Shown: in pieces, positions 16,898 through 33,823 of the stretch
Position numbering within the stretch: position 1 is the first letter of the stretch
Layout: each line of letters starts with the position of its first letter
NCBI GenBank assembly: GCA_963717145.1
Contig: OY970325.1
Coordinates: forward strand, 3,744,001-3,808,000
Length of the DNA stretch: 64,000 nucleotides
DNA from: an uncultured Armatimonadetes bacterium
GTDB taxonomy: Bacteria; Armatimonadota; UBA5829; DTJY01
Reading direction: 5' to 3'
Made by a program: the position numbers and the translations under genes
The notes under the pieces: generated by a model
What the model saw: only the letters and a program-made list of their open reading frames with translations
Told to the model about the DNA's origin: nothing
The model's database searches: none

Positions 16898-18124
16898 CTA
16901 ACGCACGAGCTTGAAGAGCCTTCCCTCGCCCGGCTGGAGCGGCAGGACCACCTTGCCTGACGCGTCCGGCGGATGGTTCAGGCGACCCCCGCTCGCCGCG
17001 GTCAGTTCCTCCAGCCGCTTCACCGATTTACCGAACGTGAGTTCCACCTCCACCGGCTTGCGCATCAGGCGGTTCGAAACCATCGCCCAGGTTGAGCCGT
17101 CCTCATGCTTGAACATCCCCAGCACGACCGGCGCGTCATTCGACACTCGAACCGGCAGCCCCGACTTCTGCGCCTGACATCCCGCCGGCACGTCGCCTGA
17201 GTGATACACGCCGGTCGAGGTCAGCTTCATCAGTGTCGGTCCGAGGATCCGCAGATCGCCGTTGATCCGCCTGGCCCGGTTGAAGAGCGCCGTCCGATTG
17301 CCCTTCTGGTCTATGATCGCGCTCAAGGGGCCCAGGACATCGCCCGGCGTCCAGTACGTGAAGTACAGTATCCCCTTCACGCCGTAGACGAGCGAGTTGT
17401 AAACCTGCCAGCGCAGATCGGCATCGGTGGGAGTGCGATAGGAGAAGTGAGGGAGCGAGAGCATTATGTAGCAGGTCGGGATGTCGTACTTCAGGCCGGC
17501 GGCGCGAACGACCTCCAGGTTCTGGAAGTAGCTGGCGATGTTCGGCAGGTTCTCCGGCTCTCCGGCCATCGCAATGTAGTGATCGTAGCTCAGTATCCGC
17601 GGTTCGACGATCTTGCAGAACTGATCGACGTGCGCCTCATACGTCGGGTTGCCGAGTTGCTGTTCATTCGCGTAGTTCGGGAACAGGTTGATGTACGGCA
17701 GGCGCTTCGGATCCGCCTTCAGCAGGTACTTGTTGATCGCCGTCAGCCTGGGGAACACAGCGGAGTTCGGCTCATCGGTGACGTAATATCCTCCCAGCGC
17801 GGGGTACTTCGAGTAGTCGGCGACCACCGAGTCGAGCTGCTTGGTGAAATCCGGGCTCGCCGGATCGGCGAAGGTCCGCGGGTCGCCGACGATGTACTTC
17901 AGGCCGTACTTCGCGCAGGCATCGAGAATCGCCTTGTTCTGCTCGGGGGTCACCGCGCTGCACGGAGGCAGGCAGTAGTTGAAGTTACACTCCGCGACCT
18001 CGGCATACCGGGCGATCGGATCCTGGTCCGCGGCCGGGCCGCACCAGTAGCTGACGATGAAATCCGACGCCGTCGCGGGCACAACGAAGAGAAGAAGGAT
18101 GACAAGAGCCAGAACCAGGTACAT
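16898..18124 (-). CDS. Secreted protein, putative TIM-barrel glycoside hydrolase
   Basis: Signal peptide, GYYVTDEP, YINLFPNYA, LSYDHY, GILYFTYW motifs typical of uncharacterised GH-like proteins. Confidence 0.65.
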   Translation of the reverse strand: MYLVLALVILLLFVVPATASDFIVSYWCGPAADQDPIARYAEVAECNFNYCLPPCSAVTPEQNKAILDACAKYGLKYIVGDPRTFADPASPDFTKQLDSVVADYSKYPALGGYYVTDEPNSAVFPRLTAINKYLLKADPKRLPYINLFPNYANEQQLGNPTYEAHVDQFCKIVEPRILSYDHYIAMAGEPENLPNIASYFQNLEVVRAAGLKYDIPTCYIMLSLPHFSYRTPTDADLRWQVYNSLVYGVKGILYFTYWTPGDVLGPLSAIIDQKGNRTALFNRARRINGDLRILGPTLMKLTSTGVYHSGDVPAGCQAQKSGLPVRVSNDAPVVLGMFKHEDGSTWAMVSNRLMRKPVEVELTFGKSVKRLEELTAASGGRLNHPPDASGKVVLPLQPGEGRLFKLVR

Positions 18125-18166
18125 GGTCGGATACCTCCCAGGACAGACGTTGGACGTCGGACCCTC

Positions 18167-18391
18167 GTAGTGGCCGCGCCTCCGTGCCGGCCATGCGCCT
18201 CCTACCGGGACCGTCTAGTCCTGAGTATGCCGGTGAATGACGGCATGTAACGAAGGACGGTGGCATTCCGCCAGACCTCCGTGCTCCGCAAGCCGCCCTT
18301 CGTTACATGCCGTCATTCACCGGCATACTCAGGGCTGACGGGTTGCCGTTCCCGGCACACCGGAAGGCCGGCACTGAGGCACGGCCACTAC
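18167..18391. repeat. Composite repeat: GTAG-type REP pair enclosing a GTCCTGAG...CTCAGG long-hairpin element (18211-18341)
   Basis: GTAGTGGCCGCGCCTCCGTGCCGGCC at 18167, inverted copy at 18366-18391; similar composite at 20606-20867. Confidence 0.9.
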
Positions 18392-18508
18392 GTTCTGTTT
18401 CCTGCATATTCGCGTTCCACACCGCCGTTCCTGCAGGGAATGGTTGGCCTGCTACCGGTCGCAGTTCCGGCGCACGTTTGCGTTGAAAGAAAAAATGGGT
18501 AGAAGGTA

Positions 18509-18563
18509 TTGACAAACGAACAGCACTCATGTAGACTAAGAGTGCTAGGTGAACTTAAGTTTG
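18509..18563 (+). promoter_or_regulatory. sigma70 promoter with downstream LexA (GAAC-N4-GTTY) box
   Basis: TTGACA(18509)-N17-TAGACT(18532); TGAACTTAAGTTTG at 18550-18563; another near-box CGAACATACGATCG at 18630-18643. Confidence 0.7.
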
Positions 18564-18582
18564 CTGTCCCGGAGGAATCGTT

Positions 18583-18984
18583 ATGATGTCAGGAAGACAC
18601 TCGGGAATCCTCTCACGAGGGTTTAGCATCGAACATACGATCGACCGCACGGAGTCGATTCTTCTCTTTGCCGCCGTCCTCATGCTCCTTTTCGTCATCG
18701 GCATGTGGGCCAAAGGCCTCATCGTATCCGATACGCCTGTCATGAACATGGAGGTCACCGTTCAGCGGGGAGACACCCTCTGGAGTGTCGCTCAGGCTTA
18801 CGGCGATCCGGACGAATACATACTCGCACGCGTCGATAAGCTGGCAAAGGCGAATGGCCTGACACGGGGCGCTGTCCTTGACAAGGGACAGACGCTCGTC
18901 GTGCCCATGACCGGCAAGATGCGCGACCTTGTACTGCGGAGGCACATATGCAAGCAGACCGACTCCGGACAAAGGACCTTATGA
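18583..18984 (+). CDS. Single-TM LysM protein, YneA-like SOS cell-division inhibitor
   Basis: One hydrophobic helix then LysM (VTVQRGDTLWSVA...N.L...L..GQTLVVP); small size; upstream SOS box; RBS GGAGG. Confidence 0.75.
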   Translation: MMSGRHSGILSRGFSIEHTIDRTESILLFAAVLMLLFVIGMWAKGLIVSDTPVMNMEVTVQRGDTLWSVAQAYGDPDEYILARVDKLAKANGLTRGAVLDKGQTLVVPMTGKMRDLVLRRHICKQTDSGQRTL

Positions 18985-19403
18985 TCGAAACCGCCGCCTG
19001 CCGTCCGGATTCAGGGCCGGGCGGCATCGGCGTTGTCGCGCGGAACGTCCATCCCACGGTGGCAGGCCGGATATGCGAGCAGGCATACGGCGACATCGAC
19101 GAGTTGACGTACCGGGCGGTGCTCAGAGCGCTAGACCTCGGGAAGCGTCTCCGCCTGGGACGAGTCTCCATCCTGTGTCCCGATGAGACGATCGTCAAGC
19201 AGATCAACCGCGAGTTGCCCGTCCCCCAGCAAGGCCGGATTCCCCTGCTCTACGTGAGGGTCAAGTCGCTCATGTACACCTACAGCCACGCGGAGATCAT
19301 CGCTGCCCCCGAGGGCAAAGTGCGCGCCGCCCGCAAGCTCGCGATGGCCGGAAGCAGGATTCCCATCCCCGTCAAGAAAGAGCCCCGCACGCTCTTCACC
19401 TAG
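18948..19403 (+). CDS. RNase HI-like (RVT_3) fold protein with degenerate active site
   Basis: GPGGIGVV, YRAVLRAL, IVKQIN, AARKLA follow the RNase HI pattern but catalytic acidic residues appear replaced; RBS GGAGG at 18938. Confidence 0.65.
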   Translation: MQADRLRTKDLMIETAACRPDSGPGGIGVVARNVHPTVAGRICEQAYGDIDELTYRAVLRALDLGKRLRLGRVSILCPDETIVKQINRELPVPQQGRIPLLYVRVKSLMYTYSHAEIIAAPEGKVRAARKLAMAGSRIPIPVKKEPRTLFT

Positions 19404-19450
19404 GCCCTGGGAATCATAATCATACTCATACTCCGTGGCCGGCACGGCCA

Positions 19451-19933
19451 CTACATCTCAGGCGGCCAATGCGTCTTCCGGCTGCTGGTGAGAATCCCGC
19501 CGGAGCAGCGGAATCTGGGGCCGATCCGGAGTGCGAGCGCCAGGGCGCACACGCAATCATCATGCTGCCCTCGACGCGCCTGCGTGCGGACGTGCCCCGA
19601 GTTGGTGATCTCATACTCGTAGAACTGAAGCTCCTCGATCAGCGGCTCGATGCGCGGATAGACGATCTCCTGATGAGCCAGACGGACGGCGAGGTTGTCG
19701 ATCAACTCGCGCTTTGTCTGGTCGTATGTCGGCGCAACGATCATCTGCACCGATCCGTCGAACGCCGCCGCGAACGTGGCGACATCGACCGCCGCCGCCT
19801 CGGTCTTGCCCCATCGCCGTCCGCACGCCGCCACTCTGACGGGATGGCCGTCGAGCAGCCACTCCCTCTGGCTCGGATGAGGAGTCCAGCCAAAGAGAGC
19901 CGCCGCCAGTTCAATCCTCTTCGCGGGTGTCAT
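19451..19933 (-). CDS. Internally deleted terminase large subunit (160 aa; possibly a pseudogene)
   Basis: PHPSQ, Walker A ACGRRWGKT and IVAPTYDQ joined in frame to C-terminal nuclease segment ELQFYEY...HDDCVCALALA. Confidence 0.75.
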   Translation of the reverse strand: MTPAKRIELAAALFGWTPHPSQREWLLDGHPVRVAACGRRWGKTEAAAVDVATFAAAFDGSVQMIVAPTYDQTKRELIDNLAVRLAHQEIVYPRIEPLIEELQFYEYEITNSGHVRTQARRGQHDDCVCALALALRIGPRFRCSGGILTSSRKTHWPPEM

Positions 19934-20300
19934 CGTTCACCTCCGCTATGCGATTGAGCACCGATGTGAAGCCATCGGCCTCGTCGTCGCCGGCGGAATG
20001 CTCGGCGGCGAGGAGTCCGCTGGCCTTGAGGAGATCGATGATCACCTTGTGGCGGACCTTCTCGTCGGCGGTCTTGATCATCGCCTCGAGTTCCTGGGCG
20101 GCCTCGACGACGCGCTTGCTGATGAACCTGATGGCGGTCAGGCGGTTGTCGCGCACGAAATCGCAGAGCGCCTGAGCGAACTGCGGGTCGCGCTTCCACT
20201 CGTCGAGGGTCTCGCGGTTGATCTTGAGCTTGCGAATGACCTCCTCGTCGGTGGACTGGAAGAGCAGAGCCACGGCCCTGCGCTGTTTGGGATCGAGCAT
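19911..20300 (-). CDS. HTH protein, terminase small subunit-like
   Basis: LDPKQRRAVALL...KINRETLDEWKRDPQF HTH followed by helical region; overlaps the start of the TerL-like gene. Confidence 0.7.
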   Translation of the reverse strand: MLDPKQRRAVALLFQSTDEEVIRKLKINRETLDEWKRDPQFAQALCDFVRDNRLTAIRFISKRVVEAAQELEAMIKTADEKVRHKVIIDLLKASGLLAAEHSAGDDEADGFTSVLNRIAEVNDDTREED

Positions 20301-20318
20301 GATTGATGCTGCCTTTCT

Positions 20319-20332
20319 CGAACATATGTTCG
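20319..20332. promoter_or_regulatory. LexA SOS box, perfect palindrome
   Basis: CGAACATATGTTCG matches the Gram-positive-type CGAAC-N4-GTTCG consensus and abuts the RBS of 19911-20300. Confidence 0.8.
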
Positions 20333-20490
20333 GCCTGATGATGTCTCCTCCGACCTGTCGGAGCCCTCATATTACTAGCACGCCATCCTGCCCCGAAAGA
20401 ATGAACAAACCGTGAACTCTCCCGGAAATCTTCGCCGCAATACATGCTGGTCGAAGAAAACCGCGACTTTCTTTTGCGCAAATATTTAGT

Positions 20491-20507
20491 TTGGCACGGT
20501 TCTTGCA
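20491..20507 (+). promoter_or_regulatory. sigma54 (-24/-12) promoter
   Basis: TTGGCACGGTTCTTGCA = TGGCACG-N4-TTGC consensus. Confidence 0.85.
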
Positions 20508-20517
20508 CAATACCCTA

Positions 20518-20584
20518 GTGGACAACAACATCTTTTCTCCTTCCTAATTGCCCTCCGGCGCTTTGCCGGGGGGCTCTCTTTTTT
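20518..20584 (+). ncRNA. Candidate sigma54-dependent small RNA, copy 1
   Basis: Lies between a consensus sigma54 promoter and an intrinsic terminator (GCCCTCCGGC-GCTTT-GCCGGGGGGC + T run); carries ACAACAACA and TTTTCTCCTTCCT; duplicated at 20931-20996. Confidence 0.7.
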
Positions 20585-20605
20585 GAGTGGTCTTCCCCGT
20601 CCCAT

Positions 20606-20867
20606 GTAGTGGCCGTGCCGGCCATGCGGCTCCTACCCGCGCCGTCTAGTCCTGAGTATGCCGGTGAATGACGGCATGTAACGAAGGACGGTGGCATTCC
20701 ACCAGGCCTCTGTGCTCCGCAGGCCGCCCTTCGTTACATGCCGTCATTCACCGGCACACTCAGGGTTGACGGGTTGCTGTCCCCGGCACGCCGGAAGCCG
20801 GCACGGAGGCGCGGCCGCTACGAGGCGATGCGATGGCGGAAGGCCGGCACGGAGGCACGGCCACTAC
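20606..20867. repeat. Composite REP / long-hairpin repeat separating the two sRNA candidates
   Basis: GTAG REP at 20606, hairpin element 20642-20772, inverted REPs ending near 20821 and 20867. Confidence 0.88.
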
Positions 20868-20903
20868 GAGCCGCCCGAGACGTTTTTTTGGCAAATGCGC
20901 GGA

Positions 20904-20920
20904 TTGGCACGATTCTTGCA
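20904..20920 (+). promoter_or_regulatory. sigma54 (-24/-12) promoter
   Basis: TTGGCACGATTCTTGCA. Confidence 0.85.
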
Positions 20921-20930
20921 CTATACCCTG

Positions 20931-20996
20931 GTAGACAACAACATCTTTTCTCCTTCCTAATTGCCCTCCGGCGCTTTGCCGGGGGGTTTTCTTTTT
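20931..20996 (+). ncRNA. Candidate sigma54-dependent small RNA, copy 2
   Basis: 20934-20986 identical to 20521-20573; own promoter and terminator T run. Confidence 0.7.
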
Positions 20997-21095
20997 GTAT
21001 AACCCCTCAACTTGTGGTACAATCAGCTTTGACTGGGACAGCTACCGGCCGCAGTGCCGGCGTCCGATTTATCCGACGTCGCTGAGGAGCCGTCC

Positions 21096-22052
21096 ATGAA
21101 GAAACGATACCTGCCGTACATCATCGCGCTCATCGCTATCCTGACCATCGCAACGATTCTGATCGCCGACGATTCGCCCTGGATCACCCCCGAGCCGCCC
21201 GAGTTCACCTTCATCGTCATGGGTGACAGCCGGCCCGGGCTGCCCGCTGAGGCCCAGCCGCGGATGTTCAAAGACCTCATCATGCGCGCGGATGCCTACA
21301 ACCCCGGGTTCGTGGTGCATACCGGCGATGCGATCTACGGGTCGTCGAGCCTGGGTAAGGTGCAGGAGCAGTACAAGGATTTCAAGGACGCCGTCAAGCC
21401 GCTGAGGGCGAAGCTCTACCTGACCATCGGCAATCACGAGGTGCAGAACCGGGAGGCGAACCAGACGTTCTTCGAGAAGGAGATCGGCGGGCTGTACTAC
21501 TCGTTCGACCTCAAGGGATCGCATTTCATCGTGCTCGACAGCCATATCGTCGGCGAGGCGGGTCGAATCGCGGGCAAGCAGCTCGACTGGCTCAAGGAAG
21601 ACCTGCGGAAGTCGCGGACCGCCCGGCACAGGTTCGTCTTCATCCACATGCCGCTCTACCCGGTCGACGGCCACATGGGGGCATGCCTCGATGCGCATCC
21701 CGAGGAGCGCGACGCGTTACACAAGCTGTTCATGCTCAACCGGGTCGATACCGTCTTCGTCGGGCACGAGCACTTTTTCGACGAGCAGAAGAGGAATGGC
21801 GTCCGCTACGTCATCAGCGGCGGCGCAGGGGCGCCTGTGTTCCCATCGCTGAAGGGCAAGGGCGACTTCTACCACTTTGTCATCGTGAATGTCAACGGCG
21901 ATTCGGTCAAGATGAAGGGGTTCCGCCCGGCGCAGAGAGGCCGACCGGAAGAGGAGTTCAGGATTCCGCCGGATCAGCCGCGTGTCCGAATGCCGAGTCG
22001 GTGGAAGAACTATGCCGGCGATGGCTTGTTGAAGCGCGCTAACTCGGCATAG
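21096..22052 (+). CDS. Calcineurin-like metallophosphoesterase, N-terminally anchored or secreted
   Basis: GDSR, HTGD, GNHE, FIHMP, GHEH motifs. Confidence 0.9.
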   Translation: MKKRYLPYIIALIAILTIATILIADDSPWITPEPPEFTFIVMGDSRPGLPAEAQPRMFKDLIMRADAYNPGFVVHTGDAIYGSSSLGKVQEQYKDFKDAVKPLRAKLYLTIGNHEVQNREANQTFFEKEIGGLYYSFDLKGSHFIVLDSHIVGEAGRIAGKQLDWLKEDLRKSRTARHRFVFIHMPLYPVDGHMGACLDAHPEERDALHKLFMLNRVDTVFVGHEHFFDEQKRNGVRYVISGGAGAPVFPSLKGKGDFYHFVIVNVNGDSVKMKGFRPAQRGRPEEEFRIPPDQPRVRMPSRWKNYAGDGLLKRANSA

Positions 22053-22154: not shown

Positions 22155-23742
22155 CAGCCTGTCCATGAAATAACCTCTGGCGCAAGGTGCCAGGTATGTA
22201 GTAAAATACGGGTATGAGCAAGCCATACCTTCCTTATCAACCTGACCAGATATTGCTGTTGCCGCCCTTGATGTCGGAGTGGCTGCCCGAGGGACATCTC
22301 GCATACTTTGTGAGCGATGTCGTAGACAGTCTCGACCTTTCCGCGATATACGCCTCATACGAGAAAGAGGCCCGAGGAGCGCCGCCGTTCCATCCGGCAA
22401 TGCTTACAAAGATCATATTCTACGGTTTGTGCCGGGGAGTGTATTCATCTCGAAAGCTCTCCCTGGCCACGTATGAAGATGTAGCCTTCCGGGTGCTTGC
22501 GGCAGGAAATCATCCCGACTTCCGCACGATAAGCGAGTTCAGGAAGAGGCATCTCAAGTCCCTTGCGGACCTGTTTGTGCAAGTGCTCAGGCTATGCGCA
22601 AGCGCCGGGCTTGTGTCGATGAAACACATAGCCATAGACGGAACAAAGCTGCTTGCCAACGCAAGCAAGCACTCCGCCATGAGCTACTCTCGGATGGTCG
22701 AGAAAGAAAAAGAGCTTCAGGCTGAGATCGAGGCGCTCCTTGCGAAGGGTCTTTCTGTGGACGACCAGGAAGACGCGGAATATGGTCTTGACCGCCGAGG
22801 AGACGAACTCCCGGAGGAACTCGCAACCAGAGAGAAGCGGCTCGCCAAGATCAGGGAAGCAAAAGAAGCGCTGGAGCGCGAGGCCAAAGAGCGAGCATCA
22901 GCCGAAGAAGCGATGCGAGCCCAAGAGAAGGCGGAGCAGGAAGCATCCGGGAAGAAGCCTCGCGGCAGAGAGCCGGGGCCCGTAAAGACAGAGCCGGAAG
23001 GGAAGGCACAGCGGAACTTCACAGACCCGGAAAGCCGGATAATGAAGGACGCAAAGAAAGCCTTCGTGCAGGCATACAACGGACAAGCTGCGGTAGACGC
23101 AGATCATCAGATTGTAGTGGCGTGTGATCTCACGAACCAGGCAGCGGACTCACCGCATCTTAGTGACATGATCGAGGCAATCAAGGAGAACACCGGAAAG
23201 AAACCGGAAGAACTATCCGCCGATGCCGGATACTTCAGCAGCGACAACATAGAGATGGTCGAGCAGCAAGGGATCGACGCTTATATACCGCCTGACAGAC
23301 AACGTCATGGCAAAGAGCCGACGGCGCCTTCCTGCCTTGATCCGGCAAAGCAATCCGCCGCAGATCGCCAGAGAGCAAAGCTCTTGACTCCTCTTGGCCG
23401 AAAGATCTACGGGAGGCGGAAGGAGACGGTAGAGCCGGTGTTCGGCCAGATCAAGAGCGCACGGAACTTCCGAGGCTTCCTACTCCGAGGCCTTGCGAAA
23501 GCGAAGTCGGAGTGGACGCTTGCGTGTCTTGGGCACAACATGCTGAAGCTATACCGATACGGCGACCGGAAATCGATCTTCGATACGTAGATATATGACC
23601 TGGATCAGGCTGATTATCAAGGTACAAGGGGTCTTTACAGACCCTCGCCGGAAATCCGGCGAAAAACACTATCGAACAGCAGCCAGCGCGACCCCGCAGA
23701 TGGGAAACTCACCCACATAGCGGGGAATTCTCAGACAGGCTG
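22155..23742 (+). mobile_element. IS1182-family insertion sequence
   Basis: CAGCCTGTC...GACAGGCTG inverted ends flanked by CTAG at 22151-22154 and 23743-23746. Confidence 0.9.
22214..23590 (+). CDS. IS1182 family transposase
   Basis: PDFRTISEFR, AIDGTKLLANAS, NFTDPESRIM, ADAGYFS, RKETVEPVFGQIK motifs. Confidence 0.95.
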   Translation: MSKPYLPYQPDQILLLPPLMSEWLPEGHLAYFVSDVVDSLDLSAIYASYEKEARGAPPFHPAMLTKIIFYGLCRGVYSSRKLSLATYEDVAFRVLAAGNHPDFRTISEFRKRHLKSLADLFVQVLRLCASAGLVSMKHIAIDGTKLLANASKHSAMSYSRMVEKEKELQAEIEALLAKGLSVDDQEDAEYGLDRRGDELPEELATREKRLAKIREAKEALEREAKERASAEEAMRAQEKAEQEASGKKPRGREPGPVKTEPEGKAQRNFTDPESRIMKDAKKAFVQAYNGQAAVDADHQIVVACDLTNQAADSPHLSDMIEAIKENTGKKPEELSADAGYFSSDNIEMVEQQGIDAYIPPDRQRHGKEPTAPSCLDPAKQSAADRQRAKLLTPLGRKIYGRRKETVEPVFGQIKSARNFRGFLLRGLAKAKSEWTLACLGHNMLKLYRYGDRKSIFDT

Positions 23743-31619: not shown

Positions 31620-32294
31620 CTAGATCCTCAACGCGGTCTCTGTCAACAGATTCTCTATGTCGCCCACGAACTGATCGCTCGGGGCAGCCCTTTCCAGAGC
31701 TTCTCGGGCCGCCTGTCTCGCCTCAACAAACCGGCCGAGTATGATGTAAGCCCTCGCGATCATGTAGTAGATCGCCGGAGACGCTGGATCCAGGCTCAGC
31801 GCCCTCGTAAGCGATGCCAGGGCTTCCTCGCCTTTACCGAGCGCAACGTATGCGTTGCCGAGAGAAAAATAAGCGTCCACATCCTCATCGTCCTGCTCTA
31901 TGGCTCGCTTGAAAAGTTCGACCATCACACCACTCTTCATGTTAGCCTGCTCTTCGTGATGCAGATAGCTCCCGAAGGCAGCCTCACCGAGAGCGGTATA
32001 GATCCCCGGGTAGTTGCCGTCCTGAGTGAGGACCTGGTACAGATGGCCGATGGCTTCATCGCACCTATCCGTTAGTGACAGGGCGACAGCCAGGTTGAAC
32101 CTGCCGGTCAGGTGGTCCGGGTTCATCTCGAGACATTGTTCGAGCAGAGCGACCGCATGTTCGAAGTCACCGTTGGCCACAGCGTTCATTGCAGCCTTGA
32201 AACACTTGTCCGGATCGCAGTTACGACCCGCGCCGCAGTTCGGACAGCCGATGTCCGACACACTGAGTCTGAAACCACACTCACTACAGCTCAT
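31620..32294 (-). CDS. TPR-repeat protein with N-terminal zinc ribbon
   Basis: CSECG...CPNCG then TPR-like helices (AYFSLGNAY, ALSLDP). Confidence 0.82.
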   Translation of the reverse strand: MSCSECGFRLSVSDIGCPNCGAGRNCDPDKCFKAAMNAVANGDFEHAVALLEQCLEMNPDHLTGRFNLAVALSLTDRCDEAIGHLYQVLTQDGNYPGIYTALGEAAFGSYLHHEEQANMKSGVMVELFKRAIEQDDEDVDAYFSLGNAYVALGKGEEALASLTRALSLDPASPAIYYMIARAYIILGRFVEARQAAREALERAAPSDQFVGDIENLLTETALRI

Positions 32295-32659
32295 CTCCTC
32301 ATACCCCCTCTGGGCGCCGCGCACGCTTCCTCCATGAAGGTTCACGACATACCGGGTGCCGTACTTTCTACCCGGCATCCTGCCAGGCAACAACCGAGAG
32401 ATGCGGCACGTCTGGGTCCGTCATCGATGCGAGTGTTACAGTGTTTCGCGATCTGACGCATAGTGGTGTTCCCAATCCGGGGCAACGGGAAACCTCCAAC
32501 AATACACGACTACCAAGGCATTTGCGGACTATGATTTCGCTAACTTTGGCACAAAATCAACTGATGTGCGCGCGCATCTATGCTCGCATTCTAGAGCCAA
32601 TCCTGGGAGCTGTCATATCGCGTGATGATAATCTGCGAAAAAAGGGTCACGCGTGCGAG

Positions 32660-33091
32660 TCAGACCGGGCGGTTGTACGTGCAGCGGTGGACGAGGCTCA
32701 GGTACGCCGAGTAGAGTCCCCTCGACTTCGAGCCGCAGGCCTCCACCCGATTGCGCGCGGTGTTGATCAACCTCACCGCCCGCGGACGTGTTGTTCCGAG
32801 CATCACCGCGACCTCATCCGGCAGCACGCCTTCCATGTACATCCTCCACGCGAATGCCTCTTCCGCAGCGAGTCCGGCTTCCTCGGACAGGTCGTCGAGT
32901 TCCGCCGAGAGAAGGATGTGGGCGCACGAATACGGACGGCCGCCATTCCACTGCCGACGGCTCGACCGCCGAGTCTTCCTGTCGAGTTGTCTTTCGGTGT
33001 AGGCCGGGTATTCCTGGTCGCGGCCCGCGAGTTCGAGCATTGTGTCTGCGAGTAGTTCCAAGGCCTCCGCATGCATCGCGTTTCTGGTCAT
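32660..33091 (-). CDS. Hypothetical protein with sigma-region-4-like HTH
   Basis: EG..PDEVAVMLGTTRPRAVRLINTARNRV; RBS GAGGAG. Confidence 0.55.
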   Translation of the reverse strand: MTRNAMHAEALELLADTMLELAGRDQEYPAYTERQLDRKTRRSSRRQWNGGRPYSCAHILLSAELDDLSEEAGLAAEEAFAWRMYMEGVLPDEVAVMLGTTRPRAVRLINTARNRVEACGSKSRGLYSAYLSLVHRCTYNRPV

Positions 33092-33481: not shown

Positions 33482-33823
33482 CTACTTGCCGGCCTTGGCG
33501 ATGATCAGCTTCACAGCATCCTTAAATGACTTGCCGATGACCTTCTGTGACACTTCCTCGAGAAGCGCTCGGCCCATCTTCTCCCTGGTGATGTTTGCCT
33601 TGTAGATGAAGGCATCGGTCTTCTTGGTCCCGGTCCGTTCCTGGGTCAGGACGCCCTTCCGGGCGAGCTTGGCCATCGTGAGCATGATAGTCGAGTAGGA
33701 CAACTCTCGCTTCGGATACATGATCTTGAAGACTTGGGTGCTGGTAATCGGGGGCTTCAGGTCCCAAATGACGTCAAGTATCTGAGCCTCCAATTCGCCC
33801 AGGGCCTGGCTTTCTTTACTCAT
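33482..33823 (-). CDS. BlaI/MecI/CopY family transcriptional regulator
   Basis: LGELEAQILDVIW, LSYSTIM.TMAKLARKG motifs; RBS AAAGGAG. Confidence 0.85.
   Translation of the reverse strand: MSKESQALGELEAQILDVIWDLKPPITSTQVFKIMYPKRELSYSTIMLTMAKLARKGVLTQERTGTKKTDAFIYKANITREKMGRALLEEVSQKVIGKSFKDAVKLIIAKAGK

Follow-up and report, generated by a model that had tools for sequence, protein, structure and literature searches.

Do a YneA-like gene, a degenerate RNase H gene and two terminase-like genes that face each other between SOS-like boxes form one DNA-damage module? The question was raised by positions 18509-20332 of a 64,000-nucleotide stretch of DNA (the window) from an uncultured Armatimonadetes bacterium (assembly GCA_963717145.1, contig OY970325.1), whose genome, G000, is a single contig of 5.37 Mb and 98% complete. 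The names of the sources of homologs likewise indicated Armatimonadota. Genes were labelled by profile matches to Pfam, NCBIfam and PHROG, with E-values or bits as given. The four open reading frames (ORFs) of the initial annotation were recovered as two convergent pairs. On the plus strand, a YneA-like protein gene (18583-18984; 133 aa, one transmembrane segment at aa 25-43 and LysM at aa 59-108; Pfam LysM, E 9e-10) was followed by a gene for an RNase HI-fold pseudo-enzyme (18981-19403; 140 aa; RVT_3, E 5e-7), whose start codon overlapped the YneA-like stop. On the minus strand, an intact terS (19911-20300; 129 aa; PHROG terminase small subunit, E 8e-12) preceded a TerL-like gene with an in-frame internal deletion (19451-19933; 160 aa; PHROG terminase large subunit, E 5e-10). 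Our analysis favoured, with a probability of about 0.7, the explanation that the terminase genes belong to a dead, host-owned, tail-less packaging unit, to which an unrelated YneA-like operon has been joined by an inversion.

Gene content, descent and selection of the packaging kit

The perfect box reported beside the terS ribosome-binding site was confirmed as a LexA-type operator, CGAACATATGTTCG, at 20319-20332, 19 bases ahead of the terS start. The same 14-mer was repeated at genome position 3601059, 163 kb from the window copy. Behind it lay a head operon with genes for a Mu-like portal, a protease, a decoration protein, a Mu gpT-like capsid, a 115-aa protein, adaptor-like and stopper-like proteins, a candidate holin of 104 aa, an M15 endolysin and another protein of 115 aa (adaptor, stopper and holin were labelled from weak matches or gene position). 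The search for orphan portal and capsid genes under the same box, proposed with the initial annotation, was thereby answered. The related statement that no prophage lies around held within the window, where a hidden Markov model search of the organism's own genome placed no capsid, portal or decoration homolog, and did not hold for the chromosome, since matching head genes stand 163 kb away. Judged by gene content, terS and the terL with its deletion make up the packaging unit of a predicted tail-less, integrase-less head/neck/lysis kit.

In its full form the kit comprised terS, terL, the Mu-like portal, the protease, the decoration protein, the Mu gpT-like capsid, variable small proteins, adaptor, stopper, holin-like genes and an endolysin. 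The terS-terL pair stood at the head of the operon in most of the loci listed, was split off from the head operon in six genomes (G000, G001, G005, G006, G009 and G010), and in 20 further loci terL was often alone or accompanied by the portal gene only. TerS matches were found in 41 of 52 relatives of the same class and 0 of 8 others, nearly always in single copy, and capsid matches in 46 of 52 and 2 of 8, respectively. TerL at E<=1e-60 reached 71 of 251 genomes of the phylum; one outside family had it in 16/16 genomes, and many families lacked it altogether. Among 107 proteins of the clusters and their flanks in 10 genomes (ORFs from our own ORF caller), no integrase, replication or tail family was detected, apart from a peptidase domain match and weak helix-turn-helix matches of TerS. 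The enzyme for lysis depended on the lineage, with three endolysin families (L043:590-988, L045:778-1503 and L039:608-1096), and the genes 3' of the capsid gene ranged from 115 to 957 aa among lineages.

The TerS protein consisted of a helix-turn-helix at the N terminus followed by a long helix and a hairpin. Its best structural matches were 2ao9, a protein of phage phBC6A51 (Z 7.3, root-mean-square deviation 3.3, 73 aligned), and the DNA-binding domain of SF6 TerS (Z 5.5, deviation 1.5, 50 aligned); Foldseek returned no match at E<=0.001.

The descent of the kit was compared with that of RecA in 37 genomes. Of 34 splits, 20 in the TerL tree and 17 in the capsid tree were shared with RecA, against at most 2 after label shuffling, and no conflict was found between splits with support of at least 0.95. 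Four of five families and all six genera were monophyletic in both the TerL and the capsid tree. In a quick tree the host TerLs formed one clade (Shimodaira-Hasegawa approximate likelihood ratio test, 97); two IMG/VR contigs nested within it and looked like host fragments, and the remaining viral contigs carried a TerL at most 40% identical and had no other kit gene in common. The ratio of nonsynonymous to synonymous substitution rates (dN/dS), estimated by the Nei-Gojobori method for pairs without this genome, some of them near saturation, was 0.06-0.18 for TerL (7 pairs), 0.07-0.19 for TerS (5 pairs), 0.02-0.17 for the capsid (7 pairs) and 0.01-0.08 for RecA. Neutral evolution, the outcome that the initial annotation had set against itself, was not what the terminase genes of the relatives displayed.

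These patterns indicated that the kit is inherited vertically, host-owned and under purifying selection. The remains of an ordinary, decayed prophage whose LexA box arose by chance would explain why this copy is broken, why its genes are phage-like and why insertion sequences (ISs) have entered it. Such a remnant is not expected to occur as a single copy in most genomes of a class, to agree with the RecA tree, to show dN/dS far below 1, or to keep a constant gene set without tail or integrase together with conserved operators, and we give this explanation hardly any weight. The kit is very probably domesticated, and the idea of host-domesticated packaging genes in a dispersed system resembling a gene transfer agent (GTA), with a LexA-type operator, gained support from distribution, RecA congruence, dN/dS and operator sites alike.

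Lesions of the kit and a probable inversion beside it

The small size of the window terL was explained by alignment with seven relatives: residues 1-72 matched, 296 codons were skipped, and the match resumed at TKRELIDN. Relative to G001, 888 bp were missing, with the junction YDQ|TKRE near 19718. Walker A and the C-terminal DD were kept, and Walker B (DEAA) and the first nuclease Asp (GIDW) were lost, which left incomplete the set of Walker A, Walker B and nuclease acidic residues required for an active large terminase. At the terL loci of 41 relatives, 38 genes were full length with Walker A and B, two were frameshifted and one was ended by a contig edge. Among 23 database proteins of 88-280 aa matching TerL, both halves were joined in the window's own protein and in 0/22 others. 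A mini-TerL as a recurring gene form was ruled out over this range of lengths, and what had been annotated as a gene type is a deletion allele. The missing segment was not found anywhere else in the genome, nor was another terminase with three Pfam families.

Three further lesions were present in the head operon, namely an IS3 element between the head operator and the portal gene, a portal fused to a protease that lacks its N-terminal part, and an IS481-like element ahead of the capsid gene. The 80-aa holin-like gene of relatives was not found in this genome at E<=1e-10. Because of the four lesions, the kit copy in this genome is judged to be dead. Recent breaks in kit genes (stops or frameshifts) were common at the tips of the trees, as in G002, G010, G024, G025, G029, G037 and G052.

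The earlier proposal that the mini-TerL, together with TerS, inhibits the packaging of induced prophages would make the four genes a functional SOS module with a dominant-negative component. The reading frame survives the deletion; terS is intact along with its operator and its ribosome-binding site; and 10 of 14 terL codons changed relative to close strains were synonymous (33 of 40 differences listed among 232). Nevertheless, the deletion was unique among 42 genomes and the 23 database matches, three more lesions affect the head operon, no other terminase was found in the genome with three Pfam families, and the terL of a near relative was frameshifted instead. On this branch terL accumulated 15 amino-acid changes versus 5 in G001 (the altered C-terminus contributes), the reverse of recA (7 versus 15). 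Together with the adjacency data given below, these observations made an inhibitory module very improbable, and the dead, host-owned unit was retained as the explanation of the right-hand pair. The loss of terL looks recent, because most of the changed codons were synonymous.

Sequences from close strains bore on the age and reality of the deletion. A contig from soil, with about 93% identity to the window, carried 935 extra letters at the terL junction, and contigs from two other studies ended at the junction as well. Two proteins in the database, both from contigs of 2340 bp, showed that the terL of a near relative is split by a frameshift, with nearly the same odd C-terminus. Because 935 cannot be divided evenly by three and the near relative's terL is frameshifted, terL may have decayed more than once in this lineage. 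Close strains without the deletion, and frameshifts that seem to affect other genes in this assembly, would also fit an assembly error in this single-contig genome as the source of the deletion or the inversion. Yet the deletion is in frame and lies at a Gln codon common to both sides (YDQ, and NVQ in the near relative), as a micro-homology deletion predicts; the missing DNA is nowhere else in the genome; and the head-operon lesions are independent, two of them being IS insertions. We regard an assembly error as having a small chance.

The convergent arrangement itself did not recur. The YneA-like/RNase H-like pair adjoined terL in 0 of 6 relatives carrying both, the terminase genes being absent from this locus there, which the initial annotation had named among the outcomes that would refute it, and the four-gene convergent module was given up on this ground and on the mapped breakpoints. 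In G001 the window's upstream genes were followed by yneA-like, rnh-like, a TPR gene and a DUF5658 gene, and blaI, gene X and the terL 3' end stood separately; G006 resembled this order, with hemB inserted. The window has the TPR and DUF5658 genes in reversed order beside X-blaI at 31-34 kb, with the zinc-ribbon/TPR gene at 31620-32378, gene X at 32660-33091 and the BlaI-family gene at 33482-33823, all three on the minus strand. Non-coding DNA 3' of the G001 rnh-like gene mapped to window positions 32644-32187 on the minus strand, and X-blaI flanked the terL 3' end in G001 and G006.

A single inversion of about 19.4-32.65 kb (13.2 kb) fits the conversion between the G001 and window orders. Its left breakpoint zone would be 19404-19460, where the end of a repeat resembling repetitive extragenic palindromes and miniature inverted-repeat transposable elements (REP/MITE-like; 19436-19456) overlaps the altered terL C-terminus, and its right zone 32611-32660, between the zinc-ribbon/TPR gene and gene X. 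No contig from close strains bridged the rnh-terL gap in four sequencing runs. Most likely, the terL/YneA-like adjacency was placed by this chromosome inversion and the two units are otherwise unrelated. We hold this anatomy of the locus, a deleted terL and unrelated units joined by inversion, with high confidence. It also illustrates that a striking local module can arise from inversion plus deletion.

LexA-type operators and a possible function of the kit

GAAC-N4-GTTC serves as the LexA motif in Bacillus and Mycobacterium (PMC3323433). Three perfect cores were present in the window, including CGAACATATGTTCG, and sites with at most one mismatch numbered 37, against 25.4 +/- 4.5 in shuffled sequences. 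With an operator matrix built from the terS sites of 13 relatives, 31 sites of the genome scored at least 14.5, and the top three were the two identical CGAACATATGTTCG boxes (joint top) and a site inside the decoration gene. The same motif was found ahead of dinB (two sites), uvrA, uvrB, the DinG-like and MrfA-like helicase genes and ruvC. A site scoring at least 14 preceded terS in 22 of 41 genomes and in 9 of 28 outside the training set, compared with 11 of 2000 background windows. Within this family a site stood ahead of the portal gene in 6 of 10 genomes and within the decoration gene in 9 of 10, the figures for other families being 0/31 and 1/34. The decoration-gene operator (G000:C1:3597486) was near-perfect, encoded G-E-H-T-F and lay upstream of the capsid gene, as at the same-family loci L031, L033, L043, L081 and L092-L096.

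The initial annotation had noted that lexA is not adjacent, and three lexA paralogs were indeed located, all elsewhere in the genome (G000:C1:4617268, 998239 and 3466161). They differed in their recognition helices, and none had a clear box in front; two to three paralogs are usual in this family. One of the three contained the helix SSSTVH, which we take to be that of Bacillus LexA. A GAAC-N4-GTTC-type operator common to terS and DNA-repair genes is what a LexA regulon should display, with recA as an exception here. SOS control of the kit in this family is therefore probable. Up to three LexA-type operators would let pieces of the kit drift apart yet stay co-regulated.

In relatives with an intact kit, the following course can be proposed. 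DNA damage would lead to LexA cleavage and to derepression of up to three sub-operons. Proheads would assemble, and TerS-TerL would then load them; host DNA is the expected cargo because no cognate phage genome exists, and preferred packaging start sites are hinted at because TerS retains its helix-turn-helix. Adaptor and stopper would close the head, holin and endolysin would lyse the producer, and the heads might act as GTA-like DNA carriers that need a tail or adhesin from elsewhere. DNA might leave a tail-less head through borrowed tails, as in the phage-inducible chromosomal islands that form capsids (cf-PICIs), or with variable small proteins serving as adhesins, or there might be no delivery and the head would be a decoy. 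We lean towards DNA-filled heads; DNA delivery is more tentative, at rather less than an even chance.

Known systems offered partial parallels. GTAs such as those of Rhodobacter capsulatus (RcGTA) and Caulobacter crescentus are described as having head and packaging genes derived from phage, inherited vertically and spread over several loci, together with a stress link and lysis genes, all of which they have in common with the kit (PMC9953437). The kit was found to consist of phage-derived head and packaging genes in a host chromosome, with vertical inheritance, purifying selection, a multi-locus layout and no integration or replication genes with the cluster. It differed in that no tail genes were found and that portal and capsid were of the Mu-like and gpT types. 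Its operators also lie directly on structural genes, whereas the effect of LexA on RcGTA is described as indirect, via CckA (PMC6363796), and RogA, reported there to be without cleavage residues, acts via gafYZ (PMC9632790). A repair benefit as the function of the kit has a precedent, because Caulobacter GTAs aid repair after DNA damage (PMC9632790).

The cf-PICIs likewise have their own capsid and packaging genes and no tail, and their heads are completed by foreign tails (10.1101/2025.02.11.637232). These satellites are mobile, package their own DNA and cross species, whereas the kit was without integrase or replication gene in the scanned clusters, followed the host tree and was often split, so that neither an integrase with a replication module nor horizontal spread characterizes it. 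By analogy, the kit appears GTA-like with a cf-PICI-like morphogenesis, and we do not place it as a member of either group.

The same host-owned kit could instead have a defensive job, in which SOS-induced surplus heads soak up prophage tails or packaging substrates, or lyse damaged cells. Timing would coincide with prophage induction, complete myoprophages were present in several kit-bearing genomes, the kit has adaptor and stopper and no tail, and cf-PICI heads bind foreign tails (10.1101/2025.02.11.637232). A tail sink, however, needs no conserved ATPase and nuclease, yet the TerL motifs were kept in 38 full-length copies, and baseplate J was found in 17 of 61 genomes and tape measure in 16 of 61, compared with the capsid gene in 49 of 61. 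A purely defensive role is unlikely on this evidence. The baseplate and tape-measure matches belonged to full prophages with large head regions of their own (six genomes listed, nine fetched), and a headless tail operon as the partner of the kit was ruled out for the six genomes listed. Related, apparently complete myoprophages (L190-L203; G008, G012, G016, G029, G035 and G040) encoded a protein of about 1,500 aa in the head region.

Returning to DNA packaging as the function, the two roles could be combined: an ancient, host-owned, SOS-wired capsid kit would pack host DNA from preferred starts and borrow the tails of co-induced prophages, acting both as a repair GTA and as a tail sink, with separate LexA operators letting the kit scatter. 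This scenario is doubtful; if true, the kit would be the domesticated, non-mobile counterpart of cf-PICI tail piracy.

In the literature on Armatimonadota gene transfer agents, LexA, terminase, capsid and portal genes and tail-less domesticated capsids, supplements and subscription papers being outside its scope, the kit was not found described. It is real and under selection, and apparently undescribed. To our knowledge, known gene transfer agents are tailed and confined to few lineages. A tail-less kit that selection maintains throughout a class, whose terminase has relatives in much of the phylum and whose structural genes carry LexA-type operators directly, would be a separate domestication. 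With the kit, two questions can be put to the test: do GTA-like particles exist that serve DNA repair, and can a host make its living from the tails of phages?

Several points weigh against this interpretation. For the kit, gene content, descent, selection, operator sites and lesions were observed, and the later steps are our reconstruction. No match to six tail Pfam families was found in this genome, the tail search covering these families and prophage proteins, and a divergent tail could be missed. Family f4 was not monophyletic in the TerL and capsid trees, and in this largest family the operator preceded terS in 6 of 21 genomes and was missing in 15. The matrix was trained on terS sites. 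The operator was absent at recA (0/48 genomes) and rare at lexA loci (1/32), and the SOS reading therefore depends on the remaining repair genes in a single genome. The kit TerS keeps its N-terminal helix-turn-helix, which RcGTA TerS is reported to be without (PMC6854486), so that the RcGTA-type small subunit without a DNA-binding domain at its N terminus has no match here. The terL deletion and the inversion were read from the assembled sequence, and uvrA appeared as a 292-aa ORF (G000:C1:911711) and several respiratory-chain genes as fragments (locus L027:1-5300), which suggests indel errors in this assembly. No repeat pair above chance was found at the inversion breakpoints. The genera of G000, G001 and G006 form a trio whose order single-gene trees do not settle; the window order is most simply the derived one because two of the three genera share the X-terL junction, an argument from parsimony only.

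The YneA-like operon and other features of the window

The YneA-like protein has the single transmembrane segment and LysM that the initial annotation called YneA-like, and its score against NCBIfam YneA, 42.6 bits, is under the cut-off of 60. YneA is a small protein with one transmembrane segment and LysM, and that of Bacillus subtilis has the same make-up (PMC13396833). The window protein differs from the latter in falling under the cut-off, in not standing beside lexA, in its pairing with a dead RNase H-fold gene and in a conserved operator that is not the SOS motif of the clade. In Bacillus, lexA and yneA are neighbours. Homologs of the YneA-like protein were detected in 13 of 60 relatives (E<=1e-6), and its gene had a dN/dS of 0.34 relative to G001. 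RNase H-like orthologs occurred in 7 of 10 same-family genomes, six of them with a YneA-like partner, a distribution which indicates that the pair is a family-level host operon.

The annotation of the second gene as a degenerate RNase H was borne out by the structural model. The model (predicted local distance difference test score 88.7; one of five models above 71) matched RNase HI in Foldseek (E 1e-9, template modeling score 0.74-0.77), and the fold is that of RVT_3-type RNase HI, as in the N-domain of M. tuberculosis Rv2228c and archaeal RNase HI. In contrast to these enzymes, the four catalytic acidic positions read T, T, P and R, and the catalytic Asp/Glu positions were replaced throughout its 51-member family, with D10 to T in 46, D74 to P in 45 and D124 to R in 42 members and the E50 position variable (E in 10). 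The gene had a dN/dS of 0.23 relative to G001. Because the catalytic positions are replaced family-wide and selection is purifying, the protein is predicted to be a conserved pseudo-enzyme, catalytically dead. An intact RNase HI was encoded separately at 607485. Most likely the two genes form an operon for the cell envelope or for the control of division, in which one partner is non-catalytic.

The near-consensus sigma70-type promoter of this operon, TTGACA-17-TAGACT at 18509-18537 on the plus strand, was confirmed; one such promoter was found versus 0.9 expected, and TTGACA with a similar -10 element also preceded the YneA-like gene in the relatives G001, G007, G006, G004 and G009. The SOS-like box named behind it did not hold, as it scored 6.3 with the SOS matrix versus 24.2 for the right-hand box. 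It is a worn copy, at 18550-18563 between the promoter and the ribosome-binding site, of the palindrome (C)AAACTTAAGTTT(G), which 5 of 6 same-family relatives with the YneA-like gene keep behind the promoter; within one mismatch, it occurs at a single site in this genome. The palindrome is probably a real operator, of a type other than the clade's SOS operator, and SOS control of the YneA-like operon through this box was not upheld. No site of this type was found ahead of the three lexA genes here or at 29 lexA loci of relatives, except for a single look-alike with a GC centre outside the class. G002, G010, G016, G038 and G059 had exact copies, which lay away from yneA-like genes (five loci examined). 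The conserved dead RNase H-fold protein and the conserved putative operator make the operon a small lead of its own. An SOS-like site, CGAACATACGATCG (18630-18643; matrix score 16.4), lay inside the 5' end of the YneA-like gene. The best near-start scores in G001, G007, G028 and G040 were at most 7.3, no site of at least 12 was found at the gene in the loci scanned, and the site is possibly due to chance.

The four genes were bracketed by 185-nt palindromic REP/MITE-like repeats (18182-18366 and 20613-20797; 93% identical), of which 317 partial BLAST matches were spread across the genome. An Rfam scan of 18100-21100 gave no match above gathering scores. Two 88%-identical units at 20472-20583 and 20885-20996 each combined a sigma54-like promoter, about 60 nt with the anti-Shine-Dalgarno-like CTCCTTCC, and a terminator; TGGCACG-N4-TTGCA is what we take to be the promoter motif. 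Only these two copies occurred in the genome, no Rfam family was assigned and no copy was seen in the other fetched loci. The genome carries two sigma54 genes, and the units are candidate tandem sigma54-dependent small RNAs. Within the inverted segment, a DDE transposase gene with DUF772 (IS1182-like) was located at 22214-23590.

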